64,000 bases of DNA from a plasmid: NCBI RefSeq assembly GCF_988243305.1, contig NZ_OZ547139.1; one strand, 5' to 3'. A program made the position numbers and the translations under genes. Below the pieces are notes generated by a model. That model did no database searches. It worked only from the letters and a program-made list of their open reading frames with translations, and was not told the DNA's origin. Positions 1,259 to 58,505 of this stretch are shown one piece after another. Each line of letters opens with the position of its first letter. Positions within the stretch are counted from its first letter, which is position 1.

Positions 1259-3439
1259 TTAAGCTCCTTTGATGCCGTCCTTGCTCTTATCTACACCTGC
1301 GTCAGGATTAAATTGCTTAGGGTTGTTACGGTTCATATTTTTGGCTCCACGACCGAACGCAGCAAAGATGTCATGAACATGGTTCTGCATATCACCCAAC
1401 ACTGAATCGTTCATCTTCTGTCCAATCCAGTTTATAACATAGTTCGGCATCCTCGCAGGAAGTGCAAATACGCGAGCCACCATACCTGTGCAAAGCCTTG
1501 CATATAACATCAAAAATCCGATCGATGACAGCAGGCCAGTGAAAGAGTCAGACTGGACCTGTTCCATAGCGAATTTAAACATCATGTTTAACGCTGTTCC
1601 CAAAGCTACGATGGCCAGAGAAGCAAAAATAAACCCCATTACCATGAGCATCGGCCGAATCATTACATCGATAAGGAACACATAACCATATGTACTCCGC
1701 TCATCATTACTCTGGCCAATGTTGATATGGGTAGCTGCCCACAGGGAAGACGCCAATACACCTGTCATAAGCGTAACCAGCCAATCTGCCATAGCAACAA
1801 ACCAATAAATCATCGGTATAAACGGCAGCCAGATAGATAGTGCAAGACCGATACCAAAGAGGCTATAAAACAGCGGGTAAACCAAGAACGAAACCGATTC
1901 TAATACGCCAGCAATAGCATCTCGAATCCCTGTAAGTTTGTTCATCATTCCCGCAGCAAAACCGGGTAGACTCTTCCCTTCTGAAACCTTCACTGCAACA
2001 TTGATAGCGGTCCAACTGGCGAGTCCAACCTCAGCTACACCTAACGTGTAATCGCCGATAGCTTTCATTTTGAGTAAAGGGTTGGTCACGTCACTGTAAC
2101 CATCACCAGTGCCGTAGTTACTCGTTGCAAGCCAGTTTGTAACGTTGAAGTCGAAAATTTTTGTAATAAGGGACGTTCCGTCTCCAGTTGTGGCGGCATT
2201 TTCAAGGCTTTTTTGATCAATGTTCCTTGCAAGTGCGTTAGATTCGGTGCCAAGAGGCGGCGTATAATTACTATTTTTCAGTTGAGAATGGTAAGCCTGG
2301 AACAAGCCTTTAAAGTAATCGATAGAGCCGATATCGCCATCGTTACTCATTCCTGAAACTACCGGCTTCAGGTTAGCAACATCTTTCATCTCGGTATTCG
2401 CAGTAGCTAATGTGTGATAGTACACACCAAGATATAGCCACCCTTTCTCTTTGATATCCGACTCCATTTTTTGAACAATTTCGTCGTCACCGGCTGCTGA
2501 ATTAGCAGCATGTTGAACCTGAAGCTGGTAATCACGCGCAGCAGTCTGGATCGCGCTTTCAACATCTGGCAGCTCACCGTCCCCGGAACGCATTTTTGCC
2601 ATATATGCTGCATTAAACTGCTCTGCAGCAGTCTTCATTTTTCCCCACAACGTGTCCGTTGCTTGTTGCTGAACGCTGTAGACGGAATCCGCATAACCGC
2701 TAGCGAAGATAGAAGTCCATCCTGCTGGACGTTGTGGCAGCGAAACGGTCCCACATACAGCTGAGCCGTTGTTTACAGATATAGAATATGTGCTGTCACC
2801 TGTTTGGTATTGCATTCTGGCGTTATTCTCATAATGTTGGCCAGAAGCCTCCATTTGAGCAATCCCCTGATTTACACCCAAAGCACAAAGGTTTGTTTCA
2901 AACATCCCTTTTGCAACAGACGCCATTTCTGGCATAACAGGGGCTATATAGACAGCTTTACCACTCGCTAATTCCGAAGCCGTTTTATCTGCAATAACAT
3001 TGGCAGATCCTACGCCAATGATTGAACCGCACCATAGAAAAAGCAGCTGCGCCACAGACCAACCGACAACGGTAGGTACAAGCAACAACCACCCAAAAGT
3101 CGTTTTAACAATTTTGAATGCGTTATTGCCATCACCCTCAATGAAACTTCCCAACTGACCTGCCTGGTGAAGTTTCTTAATGCTGATTATCCCCATATAG
3201 ACAAGGGCAAGAATCGCGATAACTTCGTTGACAGTGAAGAAAACGTTATTAAGTAAGCCATCGCCGGAAGGGCTAAACGGATTATTAACTACCTCACCAA
3301 AAACGGTATGTAACATTTGACGCGATAGGTCACCTGAACGTTTAGCCGCTTCAGTTATGCCATCAATCCCCAAATCCGCTGAATATGAAGGCGACGCCAC
3401 AACGAAAAGAGATAGAAGCAACCTTTTTAATTTACTCAT
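1259..3439 (-). CDS. traY: TraY, DotA-like polytopic inner-membrane T4SS protein (726 aa from MSKLKRLLLSLFVVASPSYSA)
   Basis: Large multi-TM protein at the traX-traY-excA position. The start is moved to ATG 3439, which gives a signal-like N-terminus and overlaps the traX stop. Confidence 0.75.
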   Translation of the reverse strand: MSKLKRLLLSLFVVASPSYSADLGIDGITEAAKRSGDLSRQMLHTVFGEVVNNPFSPSGDGLLNNVFFTVNEVIAILALVYMGIISIKKLHQAGQLGSFIEGDGNNAFKIVKTTFGWLLLVPTVVGWSVAQLLFLWCGSIIGVGSANVIADKTASELASGKAVYIAPVMPEMASVAKGMFETNLCALGVNQGIAQMEASGQHYENNARMQYQTGDSTYSISVNNGSAVCGTVSLPQRPAGWTSIFASGYADSVYSVQQQATDTLWGKMKTAAEQFNAAYMAKMRSGDGELPDVESAIQTAARDYQLQVQHAANSAAGDDEIVQKMESDIKEKGWLYLGVYYHTLATANTEMKDVANLKPVVSGMSNDGDIGSIDYFKGLFQAYHSQLKNSNYTPPLGTESNALARNIDQKSLENAATTGDGTSLITKIFDFNVTNWLATSNYGTGDGYSDVTNPLLKMKAIGDYTLGVAEVGLASWTAINVAVKVSEGKSLPGFAAGMMNKLTGIRDAIAGVLESVSFLVYPLFYSLFGIGLALSIWLPFIPMIYWFVAMADWLVTLMTGVLASSLWAATHINIGQSNDERSTYGYVFLIDVMIRPMLMVMGFIFASLAIVALGTALNMMFKFAMEQVQSDSFTGLLSSIGFLMLYARLCTGMVARVFALPARMPNYVINWIGQKMNDSVLGDMQNHVHDIFAAFGRGAKNMNRNNPKQFNPDAGVDKSKDGIKGA

Positions 3440-4082
3440 GTGGCCCCCGCTCTTGACCAGCCTGCGAAAAATTAAATGTATTACGCACTCCCCCATCATT
3501 AAGGAAATAACGTAACGTACCTTGCTCTGCATCAGAGTGAGCCTGGTTTCGTAACTGCCACCCCATGAACTCACATGTGAGAGCCTTAATGAAAGTAAAG
3601 ATCCCAGCAGCAAACAGGACGCCACAGGTGAGAGTTGCTCTTAACAAGCTCATGTTCGGTGAGCCATTTAGAAGCAATCTGGCATAACCAGACGTTAAAA
3701 AAAGCAGAATGAGGACTAATGCAAAAAAACAACAAAGCCAGTATTTCTTGTATAAACTGGCCTTATCCAACAATTCTGATACAGGTCTATTGCTCCGTTT
3801 CATAACTTCGGCGAACGGCTGATTTGCATCAGAATCAACAGGTGGACCATCAAGGTTTTTTATTTGCTTCTTAACGAATGAAGCCCGCTGAAAGAGCAGG
3901 CTGAATGTTTGCTTTACTGACGCGATAATAAAATATATATCGCTGATGCCAGTAATATAATATATCGTTCGTTTAGCCTTCCCTTCCGGGAGGTCATTGA
4001 CACCTGTTACAACATCAAGGCCTTTTTTTAATTTCCCTGATTTGGCTGTGTCTTTATCCCCTGTTTTATTTTCGTCGGTCAT
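3432..4082 (-). CDS. traX: TraX, membrane protein of the I-type T4SS
   Basis: Synteny between traW and traY, with TM helices. Start and stop overlap the neighbouring genes. Confidence 0.6.
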   Translation of the reverse strand: MTDENKTGDKDTAKSGKLKKGLDVVTGVNDLPEGKAKRTIYYITGISDIYFIIASVKQTFSLLFQRASFVKKQIKNLDGPPVDSDANQPFAEVMKRSNRPVSELLDKASLYKKYWLCCFFALVLILLFLTSGYARLLLNGSPNMSLLRATLTCGVLFAAGIFTFIKALTCEFMGWQLRNQAHSDAEQGTLRYFLNDGGVRNTFNFSQAGQERGPHE

Positions 4083-23745: not shown

Positions 23746-24111
23746 ATGCCTGCAAAAAAGAAAGCATTTTATAGCAGTGAGGACATCGGAAAATTCAAAA
23801 GCATTCTCGACAACTTGCCTGATGTGACGTCAGAAAGGCTTGAGAAAAAGCACGTACTCGACGAGCTTAAGTCTGACATTAAGAAGCTGAAAGATTCGAA
23901 AGGATATGAAGATAAAGAGATACTGAAATTCCTCAACGATGCGGGTTTTTCAGACGTTACATTACGTGATATCAAGGACATTACTGCCGGACGAGTTGGA
24001 AAAAAAAGAACCAGCAACAGCCGAAAAAAAATCACTGGAGTTGACGAAGAGCAGCGCACACAAAATAGCTCTACCGCTCAGAATCCTGACGCTTCAGGTC
24101 CGCAGTATTAA
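23746..24111 (+). CDS. oriT-adjacent basic protein (121 aa from MPAKKK), divergent from nikA; possible relaxosome/mobilization accessory
   Basis: GGGAGGG Shine-Dalgarno before ATG 23746. Lys-rich with a disordered tail. The functional call rests on position only. Confidence 0.45.
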   Translation: MPAKKKAFYSSEDIGKFKSILDNLPDVTSERLEKKHVLDELKSDIKKLKDSKGYEDKEILKFLNDAGFSDVTLRDIKDITAGRVGKKRTSNSRKKITGVDEEQRTQNSSTAQNPDASGPQY

Positions 24112-24360
24112 CCTTCACCTTTCGCATATAGCATCCAACATTATGATATAGCTCCCGGCCTGACAGGCCGGGCATGGGTGCTGCCTGTTCGTGTAATTGA
24201 GCGTGCATACTTGTCACCGTTCCGGTGACAAGGGCACTCATTGGCCGGAAAAAAATTTCCGGTTCCGCTGCAATGCAGCGCTCAATGGTGCGCACGTTCA
24301 GGACCACGATCCGCCTTAGATCCCGATAAATTTACAGGGAAAGGAGTCCGGGCACGGATA

Positions 24361-24386
24361 TTAAAAAGGGGCGCTTACAGCGCCCC
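24361..24386 (-). terminator. Rho-independent terminator after the 46-aa ORF
   Basis: 7-bp GC stem ggggcgc/gcgcccc (24368-24386) followed on the minus strand by T5. Confidence 0.7.
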
Positions 24387-24401
24387 TGAGACAGTTACAG
24401 A

Positions 24402-24542
24402 TTACATCGCGGCTTCTTTAATCCGCCGGAACACTGCCAACCAGAAACGGAAGTGATCCCATTGCGCTGCGTTCATCGGATGCGACTTTGTTTGCACTCC
24501 GTTTGCGACATCTTCAGCATAGTGTATAATCCACAACGGCAT
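24402..24542 (-). CDS. Unannotated 46-aa ORF (MPLWIIHYAEDVANGVQTKSHPMNAAQWDHFRFWLAVFRRIKEAAM)
   Basis: GAGGT 6 nt before ATG 24542 and a strong terminator 15 nt after the TAA. Below the ORF-track cutoff. The plus-strand 88-aa ORF opposite it looks spurious. Confidence 0.45.
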   Translation of the reverse strand: MPLWIIHYAEDVANGVQTKSHPMNAAQWDHFRFWLAVFRRIKEAAM

Positions 24543-26378: not shown

Positions 26379-26383
26379 TTCAA

Positions 26384-26468
26384 CTCCTTCGCCAGTCGGG
26401 GCGCTACCGCGAAAGACTCAACTGCCTTTCGATGTAATAATTATACGTCTAATGAGCCACTTTATCAA
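26384..26468 (-). promoter_or_regulatory. Leading-region cassette copy 2 (promoter + UTR + SD)
   Basis: Minus strand: TTGATA, 18 nt spacer, TATAAT, then atcgaaagg..tctttcg, then ggtagcgccccgactggcgaaggag, then ATG. Confidence 0.65.
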
Positions 26469-27300: not shown

Positions 27301-27308
27301 TTTCTGTA

Positions 27309-27395
27309 CTCCTGCGCCAGTCGGGGCGCTACCGTCGAAAGACCGGATTGCCTTTCGATGTGATTATTATACGTCTAATGAGCCATACCAATCAA
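27309..27395 (-). promoter_or_regulatory. Leading-region cassette copy 3 (full) driving klcA
   Basis: TTGATT, 18 nt spacer, TATAAT, then aatcacATCGAAAGGCAATCCGGTCTTTCGACGGTAGCGCCCCGACTGGCGCAGGAG, then ATG. Confidence 0.7.
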
Positions 27396-27500
27396 GCAAA
27401 ATATTCCCGCCTACCTGAATATTTTCAGGCGGTAGAACTCTTTCCCCTGTCCATTTTTGGGGGCAGGATCACGCCTGCCCCCTTCTGATTCACATGATTA

Positions 27501-27806: not shown

Positions 27807-27813
27807 GTTTTTT

Positions 27814-27840
27814 CCTCCTGCGCCAGTCGGGGCGCTACCG
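27814..27840 (-). promoter_or_regulatory. Leading-region cassette copy 4 (translation-initiation module only)
   Basis: cggtagcgccccgactggcgcaggagg follows directly after the upstream stop codon. No promoter part is present. Confidence 0.6.
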
Positions 27841-27867
27841 TGAAAGTTCGCTGCGTTACTGCATGAA

Positions 27868-28278: not shown

Positions 28279-28285
28279 TGTAAAA

Positions 28286-28370
28286 CTCCTGCGCCAGTCG
28301 GGGCGCTGCCGCGAAAGACCGGATGCCTTTCGATGTGATTATTATACGTCTAATGAGCCATATCAATCAA
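28286..28370 (-). promoter_or_regulatory. Leading-region cassette copy 5 (full)
   Basis: Same architecture as the other full copies. Its -35 TTGATT overlaps the last codons of the upstream gene. Confidence 0.65.
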
Positions 28371-28599
28371 GCGATTTTTCACGCTCATAGCTGCTACAGG
28401 CAACGCTGTAGCAGTTTGCATCCAGTTCTGAAGGCCAGTCGTCACGCCCGCAACCTGACAGCAGGCAGGCGCTGAGGTGCCCAGGGCGATAGTCGAGATG
28501 CTGGCATGAGGCGCAAAGGTCATCATCTGAGATTGAGCGGCCTGCACAGATAGGCGGCGCGCCATCAGTGGGAATTTCTCGAATATGCAGCGTTGTCAC
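28363..28599 (-). CDS. Cys-rich leading-region protein (78 aa, GTG start)
   Basis: GTG 28599 lies 7 nt after the conserved AGGAG module. 8 Cys residues in 78 aa. The alternative 28350-28565 frame lacks the module. Confidence 0.5.
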   Translation of the reverse strand: MTTLHIREIPTDGAPPICAGRSISDDDLCASCQHLDYRPGHLSACLLSGCGRDDWPSELDANCYSVACSSYEREKSLD

Positions 28600-28607
28600 T
28601 TTTTTTA

Positions 28608-28634
28608 CTCCTGCGCCAGTCGGGGCGCTGCCGG
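28608..28634 (-). promoter_or_regulatory. Leading-region cassette copy 6 (translation-initiation module only)
   Basis: ccggcagcgccccgactggcgcaggag. Confidence 0.6.
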
Positions 28635-29563: not shown

Positions 29564-29571
29564 GTTTATTA

Positions 29572-29657
29572 CTCCTGCGCCAGTCGGGGCGCTACCGCGA
29601 AAAGCCTCATTGCCTTTCGATGTAATTATTATGCGTCTAATGAGCCATATTAATCAA
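29572..29657 (-). promoter_or_regulatory. Leading-region cassette copy 8 (full; -10 is CATAAT)
   Basis: TTGATT, 18 nt spacer, CATAAT, then a UTR variant (tcgaaaggcaatgaggcttttcg), then ggtagcgccccgactggcgcaggag. Confidence 0.6.
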
Positions 29658-29752
29658 GCAATAAATACATGCCCGGCATGATTTTCTCAGGCCGGGGAAT
29701 ACTTCCTTTCCCTGTTTATATTTCAGGCCGCAAATGCGGCCTGCCGTCTGCA

Positions 29753-30613
29753 TTACACGCGAGGGGGTAACATTCCGGGATAGTGACTGGCAACCAGATT
29801 ATTGATCTTCTCAACCAGCTCCGGGCGTTTAAACGTAATGTGCGCGCTGCCCTTTTTGTAATATCGCACGCTGAAGTAATCACACTCGAACACCTTACCG
29901 TTGAACTGGTTTTCACTGAAAAAGGCATCCAGTTTGGCACCGTCAGAAACACGGTAATCAGGCACGTTACGCCCGTCCAGCACGTAGAACGGCCGCGCCA
30001 GATCGTCAATTTTGGTGTGCCCGTCTGAGCTGAAGCGCACCCAGCCACTGCGCCAGACATCGAGCAACGGCGCGATGATGATACGCTTGCCAAACATGCA
30101 GGGGTTATTGGTTTTATAATCCCACGACAGGGATTTAAAGATATCAATCAGCCCTTGCGTGAAGGTATCGGCCTTACTTGCGTTCAGGTGCCGGAACGTG
30201 CTCATAACGTTCTCCAGCGTTATCGGCGGCATTTCTTCGCCTGCCACCTGCCGATCCCATTCCTGACGTTGTTTGTTGCTCATCAGCGTATACATGCCGG
30301 TTTCCGACATCAGCCGATCCCAGATTTTTCCGTCGATAACGCGGGAAATAGCCGTTTCGGCCTGGTCTGGTCTGGTGTCGCTCCATTTGATCGCGCTCTC
30401 TACGGCTTTGTCGTAGTCATACAGGTACTGACAGCCTCCGGCCTGCTGCATCAGATCGCGCGCTTTTCGCAGCTTGTCTATGCCGTCGAGATAGACGCGA
30501 ATACCTTCATTCCGCAACGAGATAATGCGCTCAATAGCAATGGACGGGATCACTTCACCGCCATGCTGGCAGGACATCAGATCGACCGACGGGAGAGTTT
30601 TTTCAGATGACAT
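29753..30613 (-). CDS. Leading-region protein of unknown function (286 aa from MSSEKTLPSVD)
   Basis: The start is set to ATG 30613 just after the conserved module. The long ORF start at 30682 would overlap the module. No catalytic motif recognised. Confidence 0.6.
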   Translation of the reverse strand: MSSEKTLPSVDLMSCQHGGEVIPSIAIERIISLRNEGIRVYLDGIDKLRKARDLMQQAGGCQYLYDYDKAVESAIKWSDTRPDQAETAISRVIDGKIWDRLMSETGMYTLMSNKQRQEWDRQVAGEEMPPITLENVMSTFRHLNASKADTFTQGLIDIFKSLSWDYKTNNPCMFGKRIIIAPLLDVWRSGWVRFSSDGHTKIDDLARPFYVLDGRNVPDYRVSDGAKLDAFFSENQFNGKVFECDYFSVRYYKKGSAHITFKRPELVEKINNLVASHYPGMLPPRV

Positions 30614-30619
30614 TTCAGA

Positions 30620-30645
30620 CTCCTGCGCCATGCGGGGCGCTACCG
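30620..30645 (-). promoter_or_regulatory. Leading-region cassette copy 9 (translation-initiation module, variant loop)
   Basis: cggtagcgccccgcatggcgcaggag. Confidence 0.55.
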
Positions 30646-30685
30646 TAAGGGGTGAACAGGGCTGGCAATGCCAGCCCATCAATGA

Positions 30686-30865
30686 TTATTTGCAGCGCTG
30701 AAGCAGTTTACTGACCTGCTCGGCCAGCGCATACGTGGACGCATACGGGCCACTTAAACGACGGTTAGGGATTTCGTTGAGGGCATACAGGCACGCCTTC
30801 AGCAGCGCATCTTTCTGCGTGTCCAGTTCAGCTTTAAGCTGGGAGGGGGTCAGTGCTTTACTCAT
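30686..30865 (-). CDS. Unannotated 59-aa protein (MSKALTPSQLKAELDTQKDALLKACLYALNEIPNRRLSGPYASTYALAEQVSKLLQRCK)
   Basis: ATG 30865 follows a full cassette; TAA at 30686-30688. One residue below the ORF-track cutoff. Confidence 0.55.
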   Translation of the reverse strand: MSKALTPSQLKAELDTQKDALLKACLYALNEIPNRRLSGPYASTYALAEQVSKLLQRCK

Positions 30866-30874
30866 AATTTGTTA

Positions 30875-30960
30875 CTCCTGCGCCAGTCGGGGCGCTACCG
30901 CGAAAAGCCTCATTGCCTCTCGATGTGATTATTATACGTCTAATGAGCCACATCAATCAA
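30875..30960 (-). promoter_or_regulatory. Leading-region cassette copy 10 (full)
   Basis: TTGATT, 18 nt spacer, TATAAT, then UTR and module. Confidence 0.65.
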
Positions 30961-31015
30961 GCGTTATCTGATTAATTTTCTTTGTTTTTTCCCGGACTCC
31001 TTTCCCTGTAAATTT

Positions 31016-31472
31016 TGCTTTTCAGATCCCCATCAGCCCGATGAAGGTGCTTTGCCGGCATGGTGCAGGGGTTCAGGCATCAGACACTAGCGATAGCCCG
31101 AAACCCCGCAGGGGGTTCGGCGGAGCTGCCAGGCCTTGCCTGGCTAGCGGAGTGTGGCTGACGACTGCCCGACGGGCAGGAGCCGAAGGGGCCCAGAGGT
31201 GTTTTAGTACGGCAGGCCTGCCAGAAAACGCCGGCAACTGAGCAGAAATGAACAGGGAAGACACGCTGTGCGGGCGTCAAAATTAAGTTAACTGGCAGAC
31301 ACCAGGGCGGGATCACATCAGAAAGGGCCAGAATAGGGGGCAGGACTCGTCAAAGTCACAAAAACGATGATGGGTACAGGTTTTTTAAATGCGCGCCCAG
31401 AGAGCGGCTCAGAGCGTTTCAGGGCAATACGGGTTCGATGCCCGTATTGCCCTGCAGGCGGCAACCACCGCG
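31016..31472 (-). other. Hairpin-rich GC-rich non-coding stretch downstream of the DGQHR gene (candidate structured RNA or ssDNA element)
   Basis: No ORF with a credible SD. Perfect 14-bp hairpin cagggcaatacggg/cccgtattgccctg (31421-31455). At least five further short GC stems lie between 31095 and 31225. Confidence 0.3.
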
Positions 31473-32756
31473 TCAGCCTTCAGCTCCGGCCAGATAGCGG
31501 CTTAGCCCCTCACGGGAAGCCAGCACCGACGCTCTGAACTGCGGTTCGCCGTCACCCAGCGCCTTCAGCTTCTCCACGATATTGATCATCGGCGCGGCAG
31601 TACGCTGCTTATAATTCTCGATGTCGGCTGCATATTTCAGTAATGCCATATCACTCGCCTCCTCAGCTGGCAGGTAATCACGCAACCACAGCGCATCTGC
31701 GAACGGATCTATCAGCTTTTGCAACGCTTCAGCCGTTGCTTCGAGCGCCCGCCTGTCGGTTTTGATGGTGCCTGTCTCCGGATCAACACACTTCCCTTCC
31801 CAGCACTCAGGTACAAACGACTCCCGGTAATGAAAACCGTTGTCACCGTTTTCCGCACAGGCCAGTAGGTTCTCGATGCTTTCAGGGGTTCTGTGCCGTA
31901 ACATCCTGGCCGTTGCCATACCGATCGCATTAATCATGATGCCATGCAGTCCCAGCGCCTCCTGACGGTACTCCGCGGCGATATCATCCTGGGCAATATC
32001 ATTCCAGCGCATCGCCTGCGCCCAGGCAGTCCAGAGTCTTTCTGCCATATCACGCTGTTGCGGCGAGGGAATGCTGTTGGCCCGCAGGTTGAGCATTTTT
32101 TTCGTCGCATCGTTCAGCGCTTTAAAGCTGATAAGCCGTGAGCTTTTTGCCGGGACCACGTTGTGTTCAAAATCCACTGTGCCCGCCAGCCCGGTGACGG
32201 TTCGGGCCAGATGCATTGCCAGCTGGTTGACCGGATCATTGTTGTTATATGCCATACTGATCGCCGCTGCCGGTTTGCTCGCGTTGTTATTAATATCAGC
32301 GAAAAACTGCTGGCGTAACTCAAGTGGCAGGCCAACGGTAAGCAATAAGCTGATCGTATCTTCCGTGTTGGAATAATCGCGTACAAATTCAAAAATACCC
32401 AGCGCACGGTGCTGGCCATCGAATAATTTTAAATCAGCGTCCATCGGAATTTTAAGAATACCGACTGCCGGCGAGAGTTCGCTGGGAAGGAATTCAACAT
32501 GACTATCAATATTTCCGGTAATTGACGGCAAAATATAGGGAGCTCGTTTTGATGTTGCGCCGGCAACATAATTCCGTATTTTTTTGGCCCGCGTTTTGTT
32601 CGCTTCTCGCTGGCTGCGATCCATAACATCGCCATCATTGTCCATTGCGAGAATACGACGTAACACGACCATAGGAACCGTCAGCATGTATTGTTCTATG
32701 CCGCCCTGTATTCCGCGTGTGGCCGGGACTCTGAAAAAATAGTTATCAGTATTCAT
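31473..32756 (-). CDS. DGQHR-domain (DndB-like, ParB/Srx superfamily) protein, 427 aa
   Basis: Literal motif KLFDGQHRALG. The upstream RSQREANKTRAKKIRNY and downstream QFFADINNNASKP fit the DndB-like family as remembered. Confidence 0.7.
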   Translation of the reverse strand: MNTDNYFFRVPATRGIQGGIEQYMLTVPMVVLRRILAMDNDGDVMDRSQREANKTRAKKIRNYVAGATSKRAPYILPSITGNIDSHVEFLPSELSPAVGILKIPMDADLKLFDGQHRALGIFEFVRDYSNTEDTISLLLTVGLPLELRQQFFADINNNASKPAAAISMAYNNNDPVNQLAMHLARTVTGLAGTVDFEHNVVPAKSSRLISFKALNDATKKMLNLRANSIPSPQQRDMAERLWTAWAQAMRWNDIAQDDIAAEYRQEALGLHGIMINAIGMATARMLRHRTPESIENLLACAENGDNGFHYRESFVPECWEGKCVDPETGTIKTDRRALEATAEALQKLIDPFADALWLRDYLPAEEASDMALLKYAADIENYKQRTAAPMINIVEKLKALGDGEPQFRASVLASREGLSRYLAGAEG

Positions 32757-34349: not shown

Positions 34350-34356
34350 AAGGTGA

Positions 34357-34443
34357 CTCCTGCGCCGGTCGGGGCGCTACCGTCGAAAGACCGGATTGCC
34401 TTTCGATGTGATTATTATACGTCTAACGAGCCATATAAATCAA
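34357..34443 (-). promoter_or_regulatory. Leading-region cassette copy 11 (full, near-identical to the klcA copy)
   Basis: TTGATT, 18 nt spacer, TATAAT, then ATCGAAAGGCAATCCGGTCTTTCGACGGTAGCGCCCCGACCGGCGCAGGAG. Confidence 0.7.
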
Positions 34444-34466
34444 GTTAATTTTGTTATTTTCCTGGT

Positions 34467-34877
34467 TTAAGGAGACTCTTTCCCCTGTAAATTTTGCATC
34501 ACAAGCGCACCGTTCGGGCGCTGCAGGCGAATAATATCGTTCTGGCGAGCGTCTTTTTCCCGGATGATCCGCCAGGTTTCGGTGACGGCGCCGGCTGGCT
34601 GATACAGTCTGACCTTCACCTCGGAACGCTCTGCAGACAGCACAATGCAGCCTTTCTCATCTTGTGCAGCTGCGTGCCGGGCTTCATCTTTATCCCGCGG
34701 GCAGTCATCAAATCCTGATATTCGGACCGGATGGCCATCGATATCAACCTGATAGCCGGGCGAAATCACGGGCACGGGCTGTGGCACATTCGGGAAATAA
34801 TCAGCCAGATCACACCCTGTCAGGGCTACGGGCACAAGGCAGGCATACAGCATTAACATTCGGCGTGTGGTGATCAT
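34467..34877 (-). CDS. Lipoprotein of unknown function (136 aa)
   Basis: Lipobox VALTGC. Confidence 0.6.
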   Translation of the reverse strand: MITTRRMLMLYACLVPVALTGCDLADYFPNVPQPVPVISPGYQVDIDGHPVRISGFDDCPRDKDEARHAAAQDEKGCIVLSAERSEVKVRLYQPAGAVTETWRIIREKDARQNDIIRLQRPNGALVMQNLQGKESP

Positions 34878-35884: not shown

Positions 35885-35891
35885 GGTTTTA

Positions 35892-35961
35892 CTCCTTCGC
35901 CAGTCGGGGCGCTACCGAAAAATGAGCCTTGATAATACGACGAATGAGCCATATAAATCAA
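35892..35961 (-). promoter_or_regulatory. Leading-region cassette copy 12 (shortened UTR variant)
   Basis: TTGATT, 18 nt spacer, TATTAT, then ..cggtagcgccccgactggcgaaggag. Confidence 0.6.
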
Positions 35962-58247: not shown

Positions 58248-58505
58248 ATGCATACCACCCGACTGAAGAAGGTTGGCGGCTCAGTTATGCTGACCGTTCC
58301 ACCGGCACTGCTGAATGCGCTGTCGCTGGGTACAGATAATGAAGTTGGCATGGTCATTGATAATGGCCGGCTGATTGTGGAGCCGCACAGACGCCCGCAG
58401 TATTCACTGGCTGAGCTACTAGCGCAGTGCGATCCGAATGCTGAAATCTCGGCTGAAGAACGTGAATGGCTGGATGCGCCGGTGGCTGGTCAGGAGGAAA
58501 TCTGA
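58248..58505 (+). CDS. pemI: PemI antitoxin (MazE/AbrB fold)
   Basis: MHTTRLKKVGGSVMLTVPPALLNALSLGTDNEVGMVIDNGRLIVEP, near-identical to R100 PemI as remembered. Confidence 0.9.
   Translation: MHTTRLKKVGGSVMLTVPPALLNALSLGTDNEVGMVIDNGRLIVEPHRRPQYSLAELLAQCDPNAEISAEEREWLDAPVAGQEEI

Follow-up and report, generated by a model that had tools for sequence, protein, structure and literature searches.

The gene-free interval at positions 31016-31472 of a 64,000-nucleotide (nt) stretch of plasmid DNA (contig NZ_OZ547139.1, RefSeq assembly GCF_988243305.1; the whole stretch is called the window) is not one 450-nt element but a mosaic in which a conserved module, a variable spacer and a distinct hairpin are combined, and its functional core is a four-helix element at 31078-31189, here named module C. 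The element is a widespread structured companion of single-stranded DNA (ssDNA) promoters, usually adjoining them, and is undescribed as far as we searched; no paper delimiting or describing it was found in the searchable literature. Its function is probably carried by the transferred DNA strand during establishment in a new cell. The window is an IncL/M resistance plasmid, and by BLAST the interval and its flanks are 100% identical to pNDM-HK (NC_019063) and about 98% identical to pOXA-48-type plasmids.

A sequence-only reading of the same DNA had seen a single GC-rich, hairpin-dense stretch at the 3' end of the DGQHR operon and offered three explanations for it, namely a structured RNA (derived from the 3' untranslated region (UTR) or independent), an ssDNA element used during establishment, or a decayed gene. 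Its observation was largely right, and its interpretation was right in one of the three options, for a quarter of the interval.

Structure and Covariation of Module C

Module C consists of a three-way junction, a following hairpin and an invariant tail, and measures about 110-125 nt across the family. On the + strand of the window, helix P1 (31080-31088 with 31151-31161) closes the junction, which also holds P2 (31098-31107 with 31111-31120) and P3 (31125-31134 with 31138-31148); then come hairpin P4 (31165-31170 with 31174-31179) and the invariant tail GGAGCCGAAGG (31179-31189). Three of the short stems that the sequence-only reading had strung into a chain belong to these helices, since P2 holds gaaaccccgcagggggttc (31100-31118), P3 holds gccaggccttgcctggc (31128-31144) and P4 is ctgcccgacgggcag (31165-31179). 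All three are kept with compensatory changes, whereas the remaining stem, ggcaggcctgcc (31211-31222), is broken without compensation in pOXA-48 and is probably due to chance. Folded as ssDNA, module C reproduces P1-P4 in its minimum free energy (MFE) structure, at -32 kcal/mol for 125 nt (z -3.1).

The covariance model R1, built from 15 copies of IncF, IncI and other plasmids and from none of IncL/M, finds a single match in the window, at 31078-31188, covering model positions 1-123 of 123 (84.1 bits, E 1.9e-15). In the model-based alignment 95.6% of the cells are paired, compared with 79.4% after shuffling and 25-49% when the partners are slid, and both-sided changes occur in 22 of the 32 pairs. 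The covariation score of 0.359 exceeds that of shuffled alignments (0.126) and was reached by none of 500 shuffles, while slid partners gave at most 0.065. This alignment is fitted to R1 and hence favours structure, and an independent motif-anchored parse gives the same pattern. In that parse of 50 distinct variants, the sequences of P3 and P4 are entirely different between lineages and their pairing is nevertheless retained, so that the covariation which the sequence-only reading had suggested looking for appears as strong compensatory change in module C. Both procedures replaced a MAFFT alignment across length classes, which had misaligned the variable hairpins. The mismatches that recur are purine-purine in P4 and A·G in P2.

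Several junction motifs are near-invariant among the 50 variants, namely CATCRGAC, TAGCG, CCGAAAC, GGTTCGGCGGAG, GGAGT, GACGAC and GGAGCCGAAG. As judged from the sequences, the invariant unpaired motifs suggest a protein partner. The element belongs to no Rfam family: a search of 4227 covariance models at E up to 10 gave two chance-level matches in the window, neither of them in module C, and none in the IncF copies. Mimicry of 23S ribosomal RNA was also considered. Both GGAGCCGAAGG and CCCGAAACC occur in the E. coli 23S gene, 52 nt apart; this was judged to be chance because only 9-13-mers are shared, they come in the opposite order to that in the module, and in the rrn operon the covariance model has no match.

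Spread and Conservation

With 31016-31420 as query, BLAST found at least 5000 plasmid records that carry module C, some of them in as many as 4 copies. Query positions 57-188 (31072-31203) are about 75% identical to IncF and other plasmids of Klebsiella, Escherichia, Enterobacter, Serratia and other genera, the IncF match beginning at about 31066-31072, and the carriers include pOXA-48, pNDM and KPC-type IncF plasmids. Using nhmmer and the covariance model, 72 copies were recovered by each from the collected Enterobacterales loci, which span many genera, and the window gave exactly one. The pattern with which species-representative genomes had been scanned was too loose and gave many chance matches in high-GC metagenome-assembled genomes, and the true copies were sorted out by nhmmer and the covariance model. 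Among phage collections, INPHARED holds no module C, and two pattern matches in IMG/VR are chance occurrences in high-GC contigs that the covariance model does not match.

Three short contigs assigned to Streptomyces and Ferruginibacter (L065, L090 and L010) carry a high-scoring module C preceded by Frpo-like sequence with 81-97% identity to known Frpo; these copies are almost certainly enterobacterial plasmid contamination of the assemblies. Annotated 'hypothetical protein' open reading frames (ORFs) lie over module C and its Frpo flank in pESBL (L006 8467-8838) and in an F-like plasmid (L002 4010-4386), and both are probably spurious calls.

The loci compared below are a diverged IncL/M relative (L007, the 85%-identical homologue), a further homologue (L008), pOXA-48 (L009), a K. 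grimontii-type lineage (L003), pESBL (L006), an IncF plasmid (L004) and the F-like plasmid (L002). Across the IncL/M lineages module C is 99.2% identical, while its flanks are 82-95% identical. Between the window and L007, identity is 94.8% in the promoter unit called module A, 90.7% at 30963-31071, 99.2% in module C, 82.5% in the spacer (module D) and 100% in the hairpin (hairpin E), and the neighbouring genes are 95.6-99.6% identical. Module C thus differs at 1 position in 132 nt, as against 53 in 422 nt of flanking non-coding DNA (Fisher p 6e-6).

This constancy bears on the idea that module C is a relic in IncL/M, the remnant of an ancestral promoter cassette that had its Frpo half exchanged, maintained through hitch-hiking or recent recombination, and that it is functional beside Frpo in IncF and IncI. 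There is no adjacent ssDNA promoter in the window, only half of a linker hairpin is left, half of the module is deleted in a related lineage, and the hypervariable flanking spacer suggests recombination. However, all four helices are intact, and IncL, IncM and the L007 lineage, whose adjacent non-coding DNA differs by 5-17%, show just one change in these 132 nt (p 6e-6), which makes a relic rather unlikely.

The Strand in Which Module C Is Read

From 26 to 36 kb every gene lies on the - strand and is directed toward mobA and the traI relaxase at lower coordinates. In leading regions the transferred (T) strand is the template strand of the genes (PMC11541004). Gene direction relative to the relaxase side is therefore that of a leading region and makes the + strand the T strand, and the pESBL and IncF loci have the same geometry of genes and T strand. 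In all three families whose side of the origin of transfer (oriT) is known, the window, pESBL (L006) and IncF (L004), module C stands on the T strand.

The mismatches point the same way. Cells that are not Watson-Crick pairs hold 50 G·T against 12 A·C (37 against 12 without one register-shifted column), with a consistent direction over 11 different pairs, although the sequences are related and p-values therefore overstate the excess. This wobble asymmetry favours a structure read in the T-strand sense. In addition, the + sense folds more stably in 39 of the 50 variants.

The same figures speak to a role in the opposite sense, in which the complement of the module would act within read-through messenger RNA of the DGQHR operon as an inter-operon 3' stabiliser, processing site or attenuator. 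Here the neighbouring genes are co-directional, the complement would be transcribed if hairpin E leaks, and the - strand also folds (z -3.0). On the other hand, A·C, the pair that becomes G·U on the - strand, is about a quarter as frequent as G·T, 39 of 50 variants fold worse in the - sense, and neither a U-tract nor a terminator-like site is present; we regard this role as improbable.

A non-coding RNA of T sense, antisense to the leading genes, would likewise suit the G·U-compatible asymmetry on the T strand. The duplex form of the promoter region nearby might, for instance, give rise to it, and it could serve as a regulator, or as a protein sponge through three exposed GGAG motifs. A precedent is AS-pc01, which stands beside Frpo in the IncF leading region: Rfam places it in T-strand sense and antisense to a gene start at L002 6661-6757, on the T-strand 5' side of a Frpo copy, so antisense transcription does occur in IncF leading regions. 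In the window, however, no promoter-like site was found on the + strand in 30600-31600, and the 5' flanks are wholly different between IncL/M and IncF/IncI, hence there is no common promoter. Kong et al. (2018) sequenced the small RNAs (sRNAs) of pNDM-HK with Northern validation and reported six, none of which comes from the interval (PMC5880898). Their data argue against an abundant stable sRNA in established cells and are silent on early conjugation. With no Rfam family match either, the independent non-coding RNA of the sequence-only reading is left without support, and we give a T-sense RNA little credence.

Neighbourhood of Module C

In other plasmids module C usually keeps company with ssDNA promoters of class 1, which comprises Frpo, ssi1-3 and ssp1 of F and ColIb-P9 (Masai and Arai, 1997; PMC9849209; PMC12672017). 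Such neighbours were detected by BLAST, and the distances given here cover those copies only. Module C is placed on the T-strand 3' side of its neighbour, at about 35-75 nt from class 1 elements detected by BLAST and at about 35-100 nt over IncF and IncI plasmids in general. In pESBL a gap of 34-35 nt separates it in this way from ssi3 and from ssi2; the distance is about 90 nt to ssiD and to two more Frpo-like copies in the F-like plasmid L002, and about 73 nt to the sequence named Frpo'1 by Samuel et al. in Klebsiella IncFII. A few copies adjoin other candidate ssDNA-promoter types or directly a gene start. The gene-proximal flanks fall largely into one cluster (53 of 65), to which the Frpo-flanked copies belong, and a separate cluster is made up of the IncL/M group, while the distal flanks split into about 29 unrelated clusters. 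One main proximal cluster and many distal ones make module C the distal boundary of a portable promoter cassette.

In pESBL, ssi2 and ssi3 follow co-directional operons and have module C, and ssi1, which follows oppositely oriented genes, is without it. With n=3, this link to co-directional upstream operons is suggestive. Counting ORF strands around the copies is weakly informative, as GC-rich DNA gives spurious antisense ORFs.

Structure, conservation, strand and neighbourhood of module C are thus directly supported. Its fixed T-strand orientation, the ratio of G·T to A·C and the ssDNA promoters that adjoin it elsewhere make an ssDNA establishment element the best-supported of the earlier options for 31078-31189, and for that part only; the rest of the interval does not share in it. 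For this core the proposed origin in the 3' UTR of DGQHR is not supported, as the region persists without DGQHR and the module occurs in IncF and IncI with no DGQHR gene adjoining.

The Remainder of the Interval

The interval is without annotation in all of the best 25 matching records listed. Its GC content (0.56-0.58), which the sequence-only reading had called rich, exceeds that of the neighbouring sequence only slightly. Neither does hairpin density extend over the 450 nt: module C (31076-31200) folds as ssDNA at z -3.1, and the roughly 215 nt toward hairpin E, at z -1.0 and +0.4, equal their shuffles. A sliding scan of ssDNA folding over 23-41 kb singles out the oriT region; once GC is considered, the interval is no outlier. 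ARAGORN found no transfer RNA (tRNA) in 30500-32000, and no tandem repeat was found in the interval.

Between the promoter side and module C lies a linker on the + strand (31030..31071, CATCAG...TTTGCCGGCATGGTG). In IncF-type plasmids a GCCGGC hairpin stands between Frpo and module C, and by-eye comparison with the upstream sequences of Frpo*5-7 and with the flank in L004 finds a weak likeness of the linker to the 3' half of that hairpin.

On the other side of module C, spacer D (31204..31419, not assigned to a strand) stands out by low identity and shuffle-level folding. It is 96.8% identical to the window in pOXA-48, 94.5% in L008, 82.5% in L007 and 73.2% in L003, where flanking genes are 91-99.6% identical. 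It occurs in 1185 records, and among the matches listed all have IncL/M-type or L003-type backbones. Aligned over 31204-31420 with L007 2501-2717, its 82.5% identity contrasts with 96-99.6% in the flanking genes, which reflects either a local recombination patch or unusually fast change. A long Frpo-like hairpin that pairs 30972-31066 with 31191-31324 and has module C at its apex is present in the MFE fold and was rejected, because its energy is unexceptional, its arms are uncompensated in L003 and L007, and the similarity of module D to an inverted promoter unit is not significant. As many as 126 of 500 shuffles score as high in that last comparison, and only the short motif TTCCCTGTnnATTT, an inverted copy of which lies inside spacer D at 31246-31259, is truly common to both.

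Hairpin E (31420..31454, not assigned to a strand) is a perfect helix of 14-15 bp that ends 18 nt before the stop codon of the DGQHR gene (31473-32756, - strand). The perfect 14-bp hairpin that the sequence-only reading had placed next to this stop is therefore real, with arms at 31420-31433 and 31441-31454 (14 nt, 100% complementary) and -17.8 kcal/mol as ssDNA (z -6.7 on the + strand and -7.0 on the - strand). Of an intrinsic terminator it has the GC-rich stem-loop and lacks the U-tract, as that reading had also remarked: a terminator scan found no T/U-tract 3' of it and no terminator-like site on either strand, and past the hairpin the - strand continues GAAACGCTCTGAG. L007 and pOXA-48 preserve it completely (100%), and L008 shows a single uncompensated change. 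L003, which has lost DGQHR, differs at 6 of the 35 positions, and the stem there is broken. Hairpin E is thus preserved together with DGQHR and decays in the absence of the gene; the simplest view is that it forms a 3'-end structure, most likely one that ends or stabilises the DGQHR transcript. A tRNA-like T-arm in it (loop TTCGATG) was dismissed: ARAGORN was negative, the loop motif occurs only in IncL/M copies, and an equal match was found in 12 of 100 shuffles.

DGQHR itself is dispensable, as it is deleted in the L003 lineage and interrupted by an IS1 insertion in the pOXA-48 copy (L009 3742-4512). In the L003 lineage all of the gene except its last 110 nt or so is missing (L003 about 3340-3480) and the non-coding region is still present; the interval is therefore not simply the DGQHR 3' UTR.

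The claim that the interval holds no credible ORF was borne out. For five ORFs of 48-78 amino acids (aa), Pfam and NCBIfam gave nothing above their curated cut-offs, and no ORF survives in both of the diverged homologues: those of 66, 78 and 48 aa are lost in L007, and that of 63 aa, kept there only by the overlying near-invariant module C, is gone in L003. A decayed protein-coding gene could draw on the mere presence of these overlapping ORFs and on the few records that annotate a hypothetical protein there. It is highly improbable and was rejected in view of the absent family matches, the loss of the ORFs, substitutions in the interval that show no significant codon periodicity, and the replacement of whole stems with retained pairing, which is incompatible with coding constraint.

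Promoter Unit A and the Probable oriT Region

The interval is bounded, from outside, by module A (30866..30962, - strand), a repeated sigma-70 promoter followed by the 5' UTR hairpin and Shine-Dalgarno sequence of a 59-aa gene. This unit has its -35 box TTGATT at 30960-30955, its -10 box TATAAT at 30936-30931 and its transcription start at 30924 (scan score 10/12). The sRNA NDM-sR5b occupies pNDM-HK 58418-58472, with a start at 58418 by 5'RACE (PMC5880898). It maps to window 30924-30870 on the - strand, that is, to the leader of unit A, and since 58418 corresponds to window 30924, the promoter and start site of the unit are confirmed. NDM-sR5a-d look like 5' leaders of leading genes rather than independent sRNAs.

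Unit A, of about 95 nt, is repeated upstream of many leading-region genes, in more copies than the four reported as sRNAs. The window has six long copies including this one (30866-30962, 29565-29659, 28285-28373, 27307-27397, 26383-26460 and 34353-34497) and four partial ones (27808-27845, 28601-28633, 35889-35929 and 30619-30645). Within the repeated promoter, at 30922-30954, lies the palindrome GATGTG-A-TTATTA / TAATGA-GC-CACATC, which extends from the promoter spacer over the -10 box as far as the start; it looks like a putative operator for a dimeric repressor.

Beside the promoter, on the + strand, is a 25-nt box (30991..31015) with the over-represented motif TTCCCTGTnnATTT, which has 11 sites in the window against 0.4 expected (17295, 24328, 27443, 29708, 31002, 31246, 34481, 37828, 56245, 57484 and 60735). 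Several of these accompany promoter units, 27443 lying by 27307-27397, 29708 by 29565-29659, 31002 by 30866-30962, and 34481 inside 34353-34497. From this count and position, TTCCCTGTnnATTT is likely a binding site of a plasmid regulator, and the box is probably a double-stranded DNA regulator site of the promoter unit. The sites at 31002 and 31246 form an inverted pair that flanks module C.

The 25-nt box also recurs as a perfect inverted repeat at 24328-24352, in the oriT region 6.6 kb away, and the two copies are complementary on the T strand and could pair. The surrounding 24080-24480, between the mob genes and the first leading gene, has the strongest ssDNA fold of 23-41 kb (-87.6 kcal/mol, z -7.2) and contains on the + strand AATCCTGA, which resembles what we take to be the MOBP nic core. 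This region is probably oriT, and possibly also an IncL/M ssDNA promoter.

A Proposed Role in Establishment

Our preferred explanation, put forward tentatively, is that module C is a cis-acting folded-ssDNA boundary or insulator element used in establishment. When the plasmid enters the recipient as ssDNA, the module C segment of the T strand would fold and, at the upstream border of a leading-region transcription unit, act in cis. The folded segment would probably be bound by a protein of the host or the plasmid through the invariant unpaired GGAG/CCGAA motifs. The compact GC-rich fold could then hinder what arrives from the T-strand 3' side, whether complementary-strand DNA polymerase, read-through RNA polymerase or 3'-5' ssDNA translocases, and the downstream promoter and genes would stay longer in the early single-stranded expression state. 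In IncF and IncI the protected unit would be the Frpo/ssi ssDNA promoter; in the window plasmid, where module C is upstream of a conventional promoter, it might do the same job or be a conserved leftover. We infer here both that DNA is the active form and that it serves as a barrier. A boundary role is favoured because of the analogy with the ssp2 roadblock and the fixed position of the module on the side from which synthesis, read-through and 3'-5' translocases arrive.

Several observations weigh against this proposal. The fold of module C (-32 kcal/mol for 125 nt) is much weaker than the hairpins of ssDNA promoters and is perhaps a poor barrier alone. The copy in the window has no adjacent ssDNA promoter and stands upstream of a conventional promoter with a published start, and the class 2 ssDNA promoters of pESBL follow co-directional genes and yet are without module C. 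Its identity of 99% is not above that of the best-conserved neighbouring genes, and half of it is deleted in the L003-type lineage (about 285 records, 60-80% identity), where it is thus dispensable. Finally, the wobble asymmetry would suit an RNA of T sense equally well.

In a more general form, which is possible and slightly more doubtful than the boundary element itself, module C would be an undescribed class of protein-recognised folded-ssDNA signal of IncF, IncI, IncL/M and other Enterobacterales plasmids, marking the upstream boundary of early units and controlling duplex conversion by barrier or priming. Leading regions decide the survival of resistance plasmids in the first minutes in a new host, and recent work shows that folded T-strand DNA drives early expression of anti-defence genes and times duplex conversion. 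If the proposal is true, module C is a second general component of the establishment programme beside the ssDNA promoters. Should module C be inert, the gap is still re-described: rather than a 450-nt RNA, it combines a repeated promoter unit with a single conserved module, a spacer resembling junk and a hairpin at the gene end.

Comparison With Known Systems

Module C and the class 1 promoters are both T-strand elements upstream of leading genes in the leading region, and in IncF and IncI they are adjacent and travel together. They differ in that the class 1 hairpin is about 330 nt long, while module C has about 110 nt and four short helices. Module C lies outside the published Frpo/ssi boundaries and is absent from the published Frpo2 reporter construct, and it is therefore not part of the minimal promoter. 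The window copy shares with class 1 its position, on the T strand and upstream of co-oriented leading genes. A blastn comparison (word size 7) of ColIb Frpo1-3, F ssiD and the F Frpo2 construct with the window gave a best E of 0.18, with no match in the interval. No long stable hairpin of that class is present, the 300-nt ssDNA folding at -59 kcal/mol (z -1.6, -5 kcal/mol beyond the GC expectation), nor were -35 and -10 boxes found on the T strand, as 30600-31600 has no promoter-like site on the + strand. For class 2, upstream of klcA and ardA in pESBL, the interval matched L006 at its two module C copies only, and the class 2-like Frpo'4 maps elsewhere in L006. Class 3 (M.EcoGIX) was covered only through the absence of further L006 matches.

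In size, in having several GC-rich hairpins on one strand destined for conversion to duplex and in one active orientation, module C also resembles G4- and phiX-type ssi and the rolling-circle sso. Its junction TAGCG may resemble the CS-6 motif of ssoA. The folded T-strand module could accordingly be thought of as a priming signal of G4-, phiX-type ssi or sso kind, a primosome-assembly or primase site that starts rifampicin-resistant complementary-strand synthesis upstream of each leading unit. The T sense, the covariation and three to four GC-rich hairpins in about 110 nt with invariant single-stranded motifs, as in the G4 origin, would agree with this, and complementary-strand synthesis of F continues in rifampicin and needs repeated priming at unmapped sites. 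Yet the G4 complementary-strand origin has no BLAST similarity to module C and no R1 match, and F ssiE is not similar either. The start CTG next to a hairpin that characterises the G4 type has its counterpart in the CTG of GGCTGACGAC, which is not conserved and reads CTCGAC in many copies. Moreover, a primer laid down here would rapidly turn the adjacent ssDNA promoter into duplex, contrary to prolonged early expression. Priming is thus not a likely function of module C. Among the sRNAs, NDM-sR5a-d share the plasmid and the intergenic gap with it; the start of NDM-sR5b is 154 nt from module C, and there is no overlap with the interval.

The proposed boundary mechanism is modelled on ssp2 of F, a folded T-strand hairpin that stalls complementary-strand synthesis and prolongs early expression (bioRxiv 10.64898/2026.01.09.698686). 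Both are T-strand secondary structures in the leading region, with the effect ascribed to the fold. However, the promoter hairpin ssp2 is long and very stable and its stalling has been mapped, and module C, known from sequence alone, is smaller and weaker and has conserved unpaired motifs.

The closest published material is a list of 400-nt upstream regions in Supplementary file 4 of Samuel et al. (2024), where the candidates Frpo*4 and Frpo*5 are given whole as possibly containing an ssDNA promoter (PMC11541004). Module C may confound published promoter deletions and candidate Frpo lists that unknowingly include it. Although the module is neither delimited nor structurally described in that publication, nor separated from the promoter hairpin, the last 40-100 nt or so of the Frpo*4 and Frpo*5 sequences are module C, and positions 300-388 of Frpo*4 are 79% identical to window 31078-31164.

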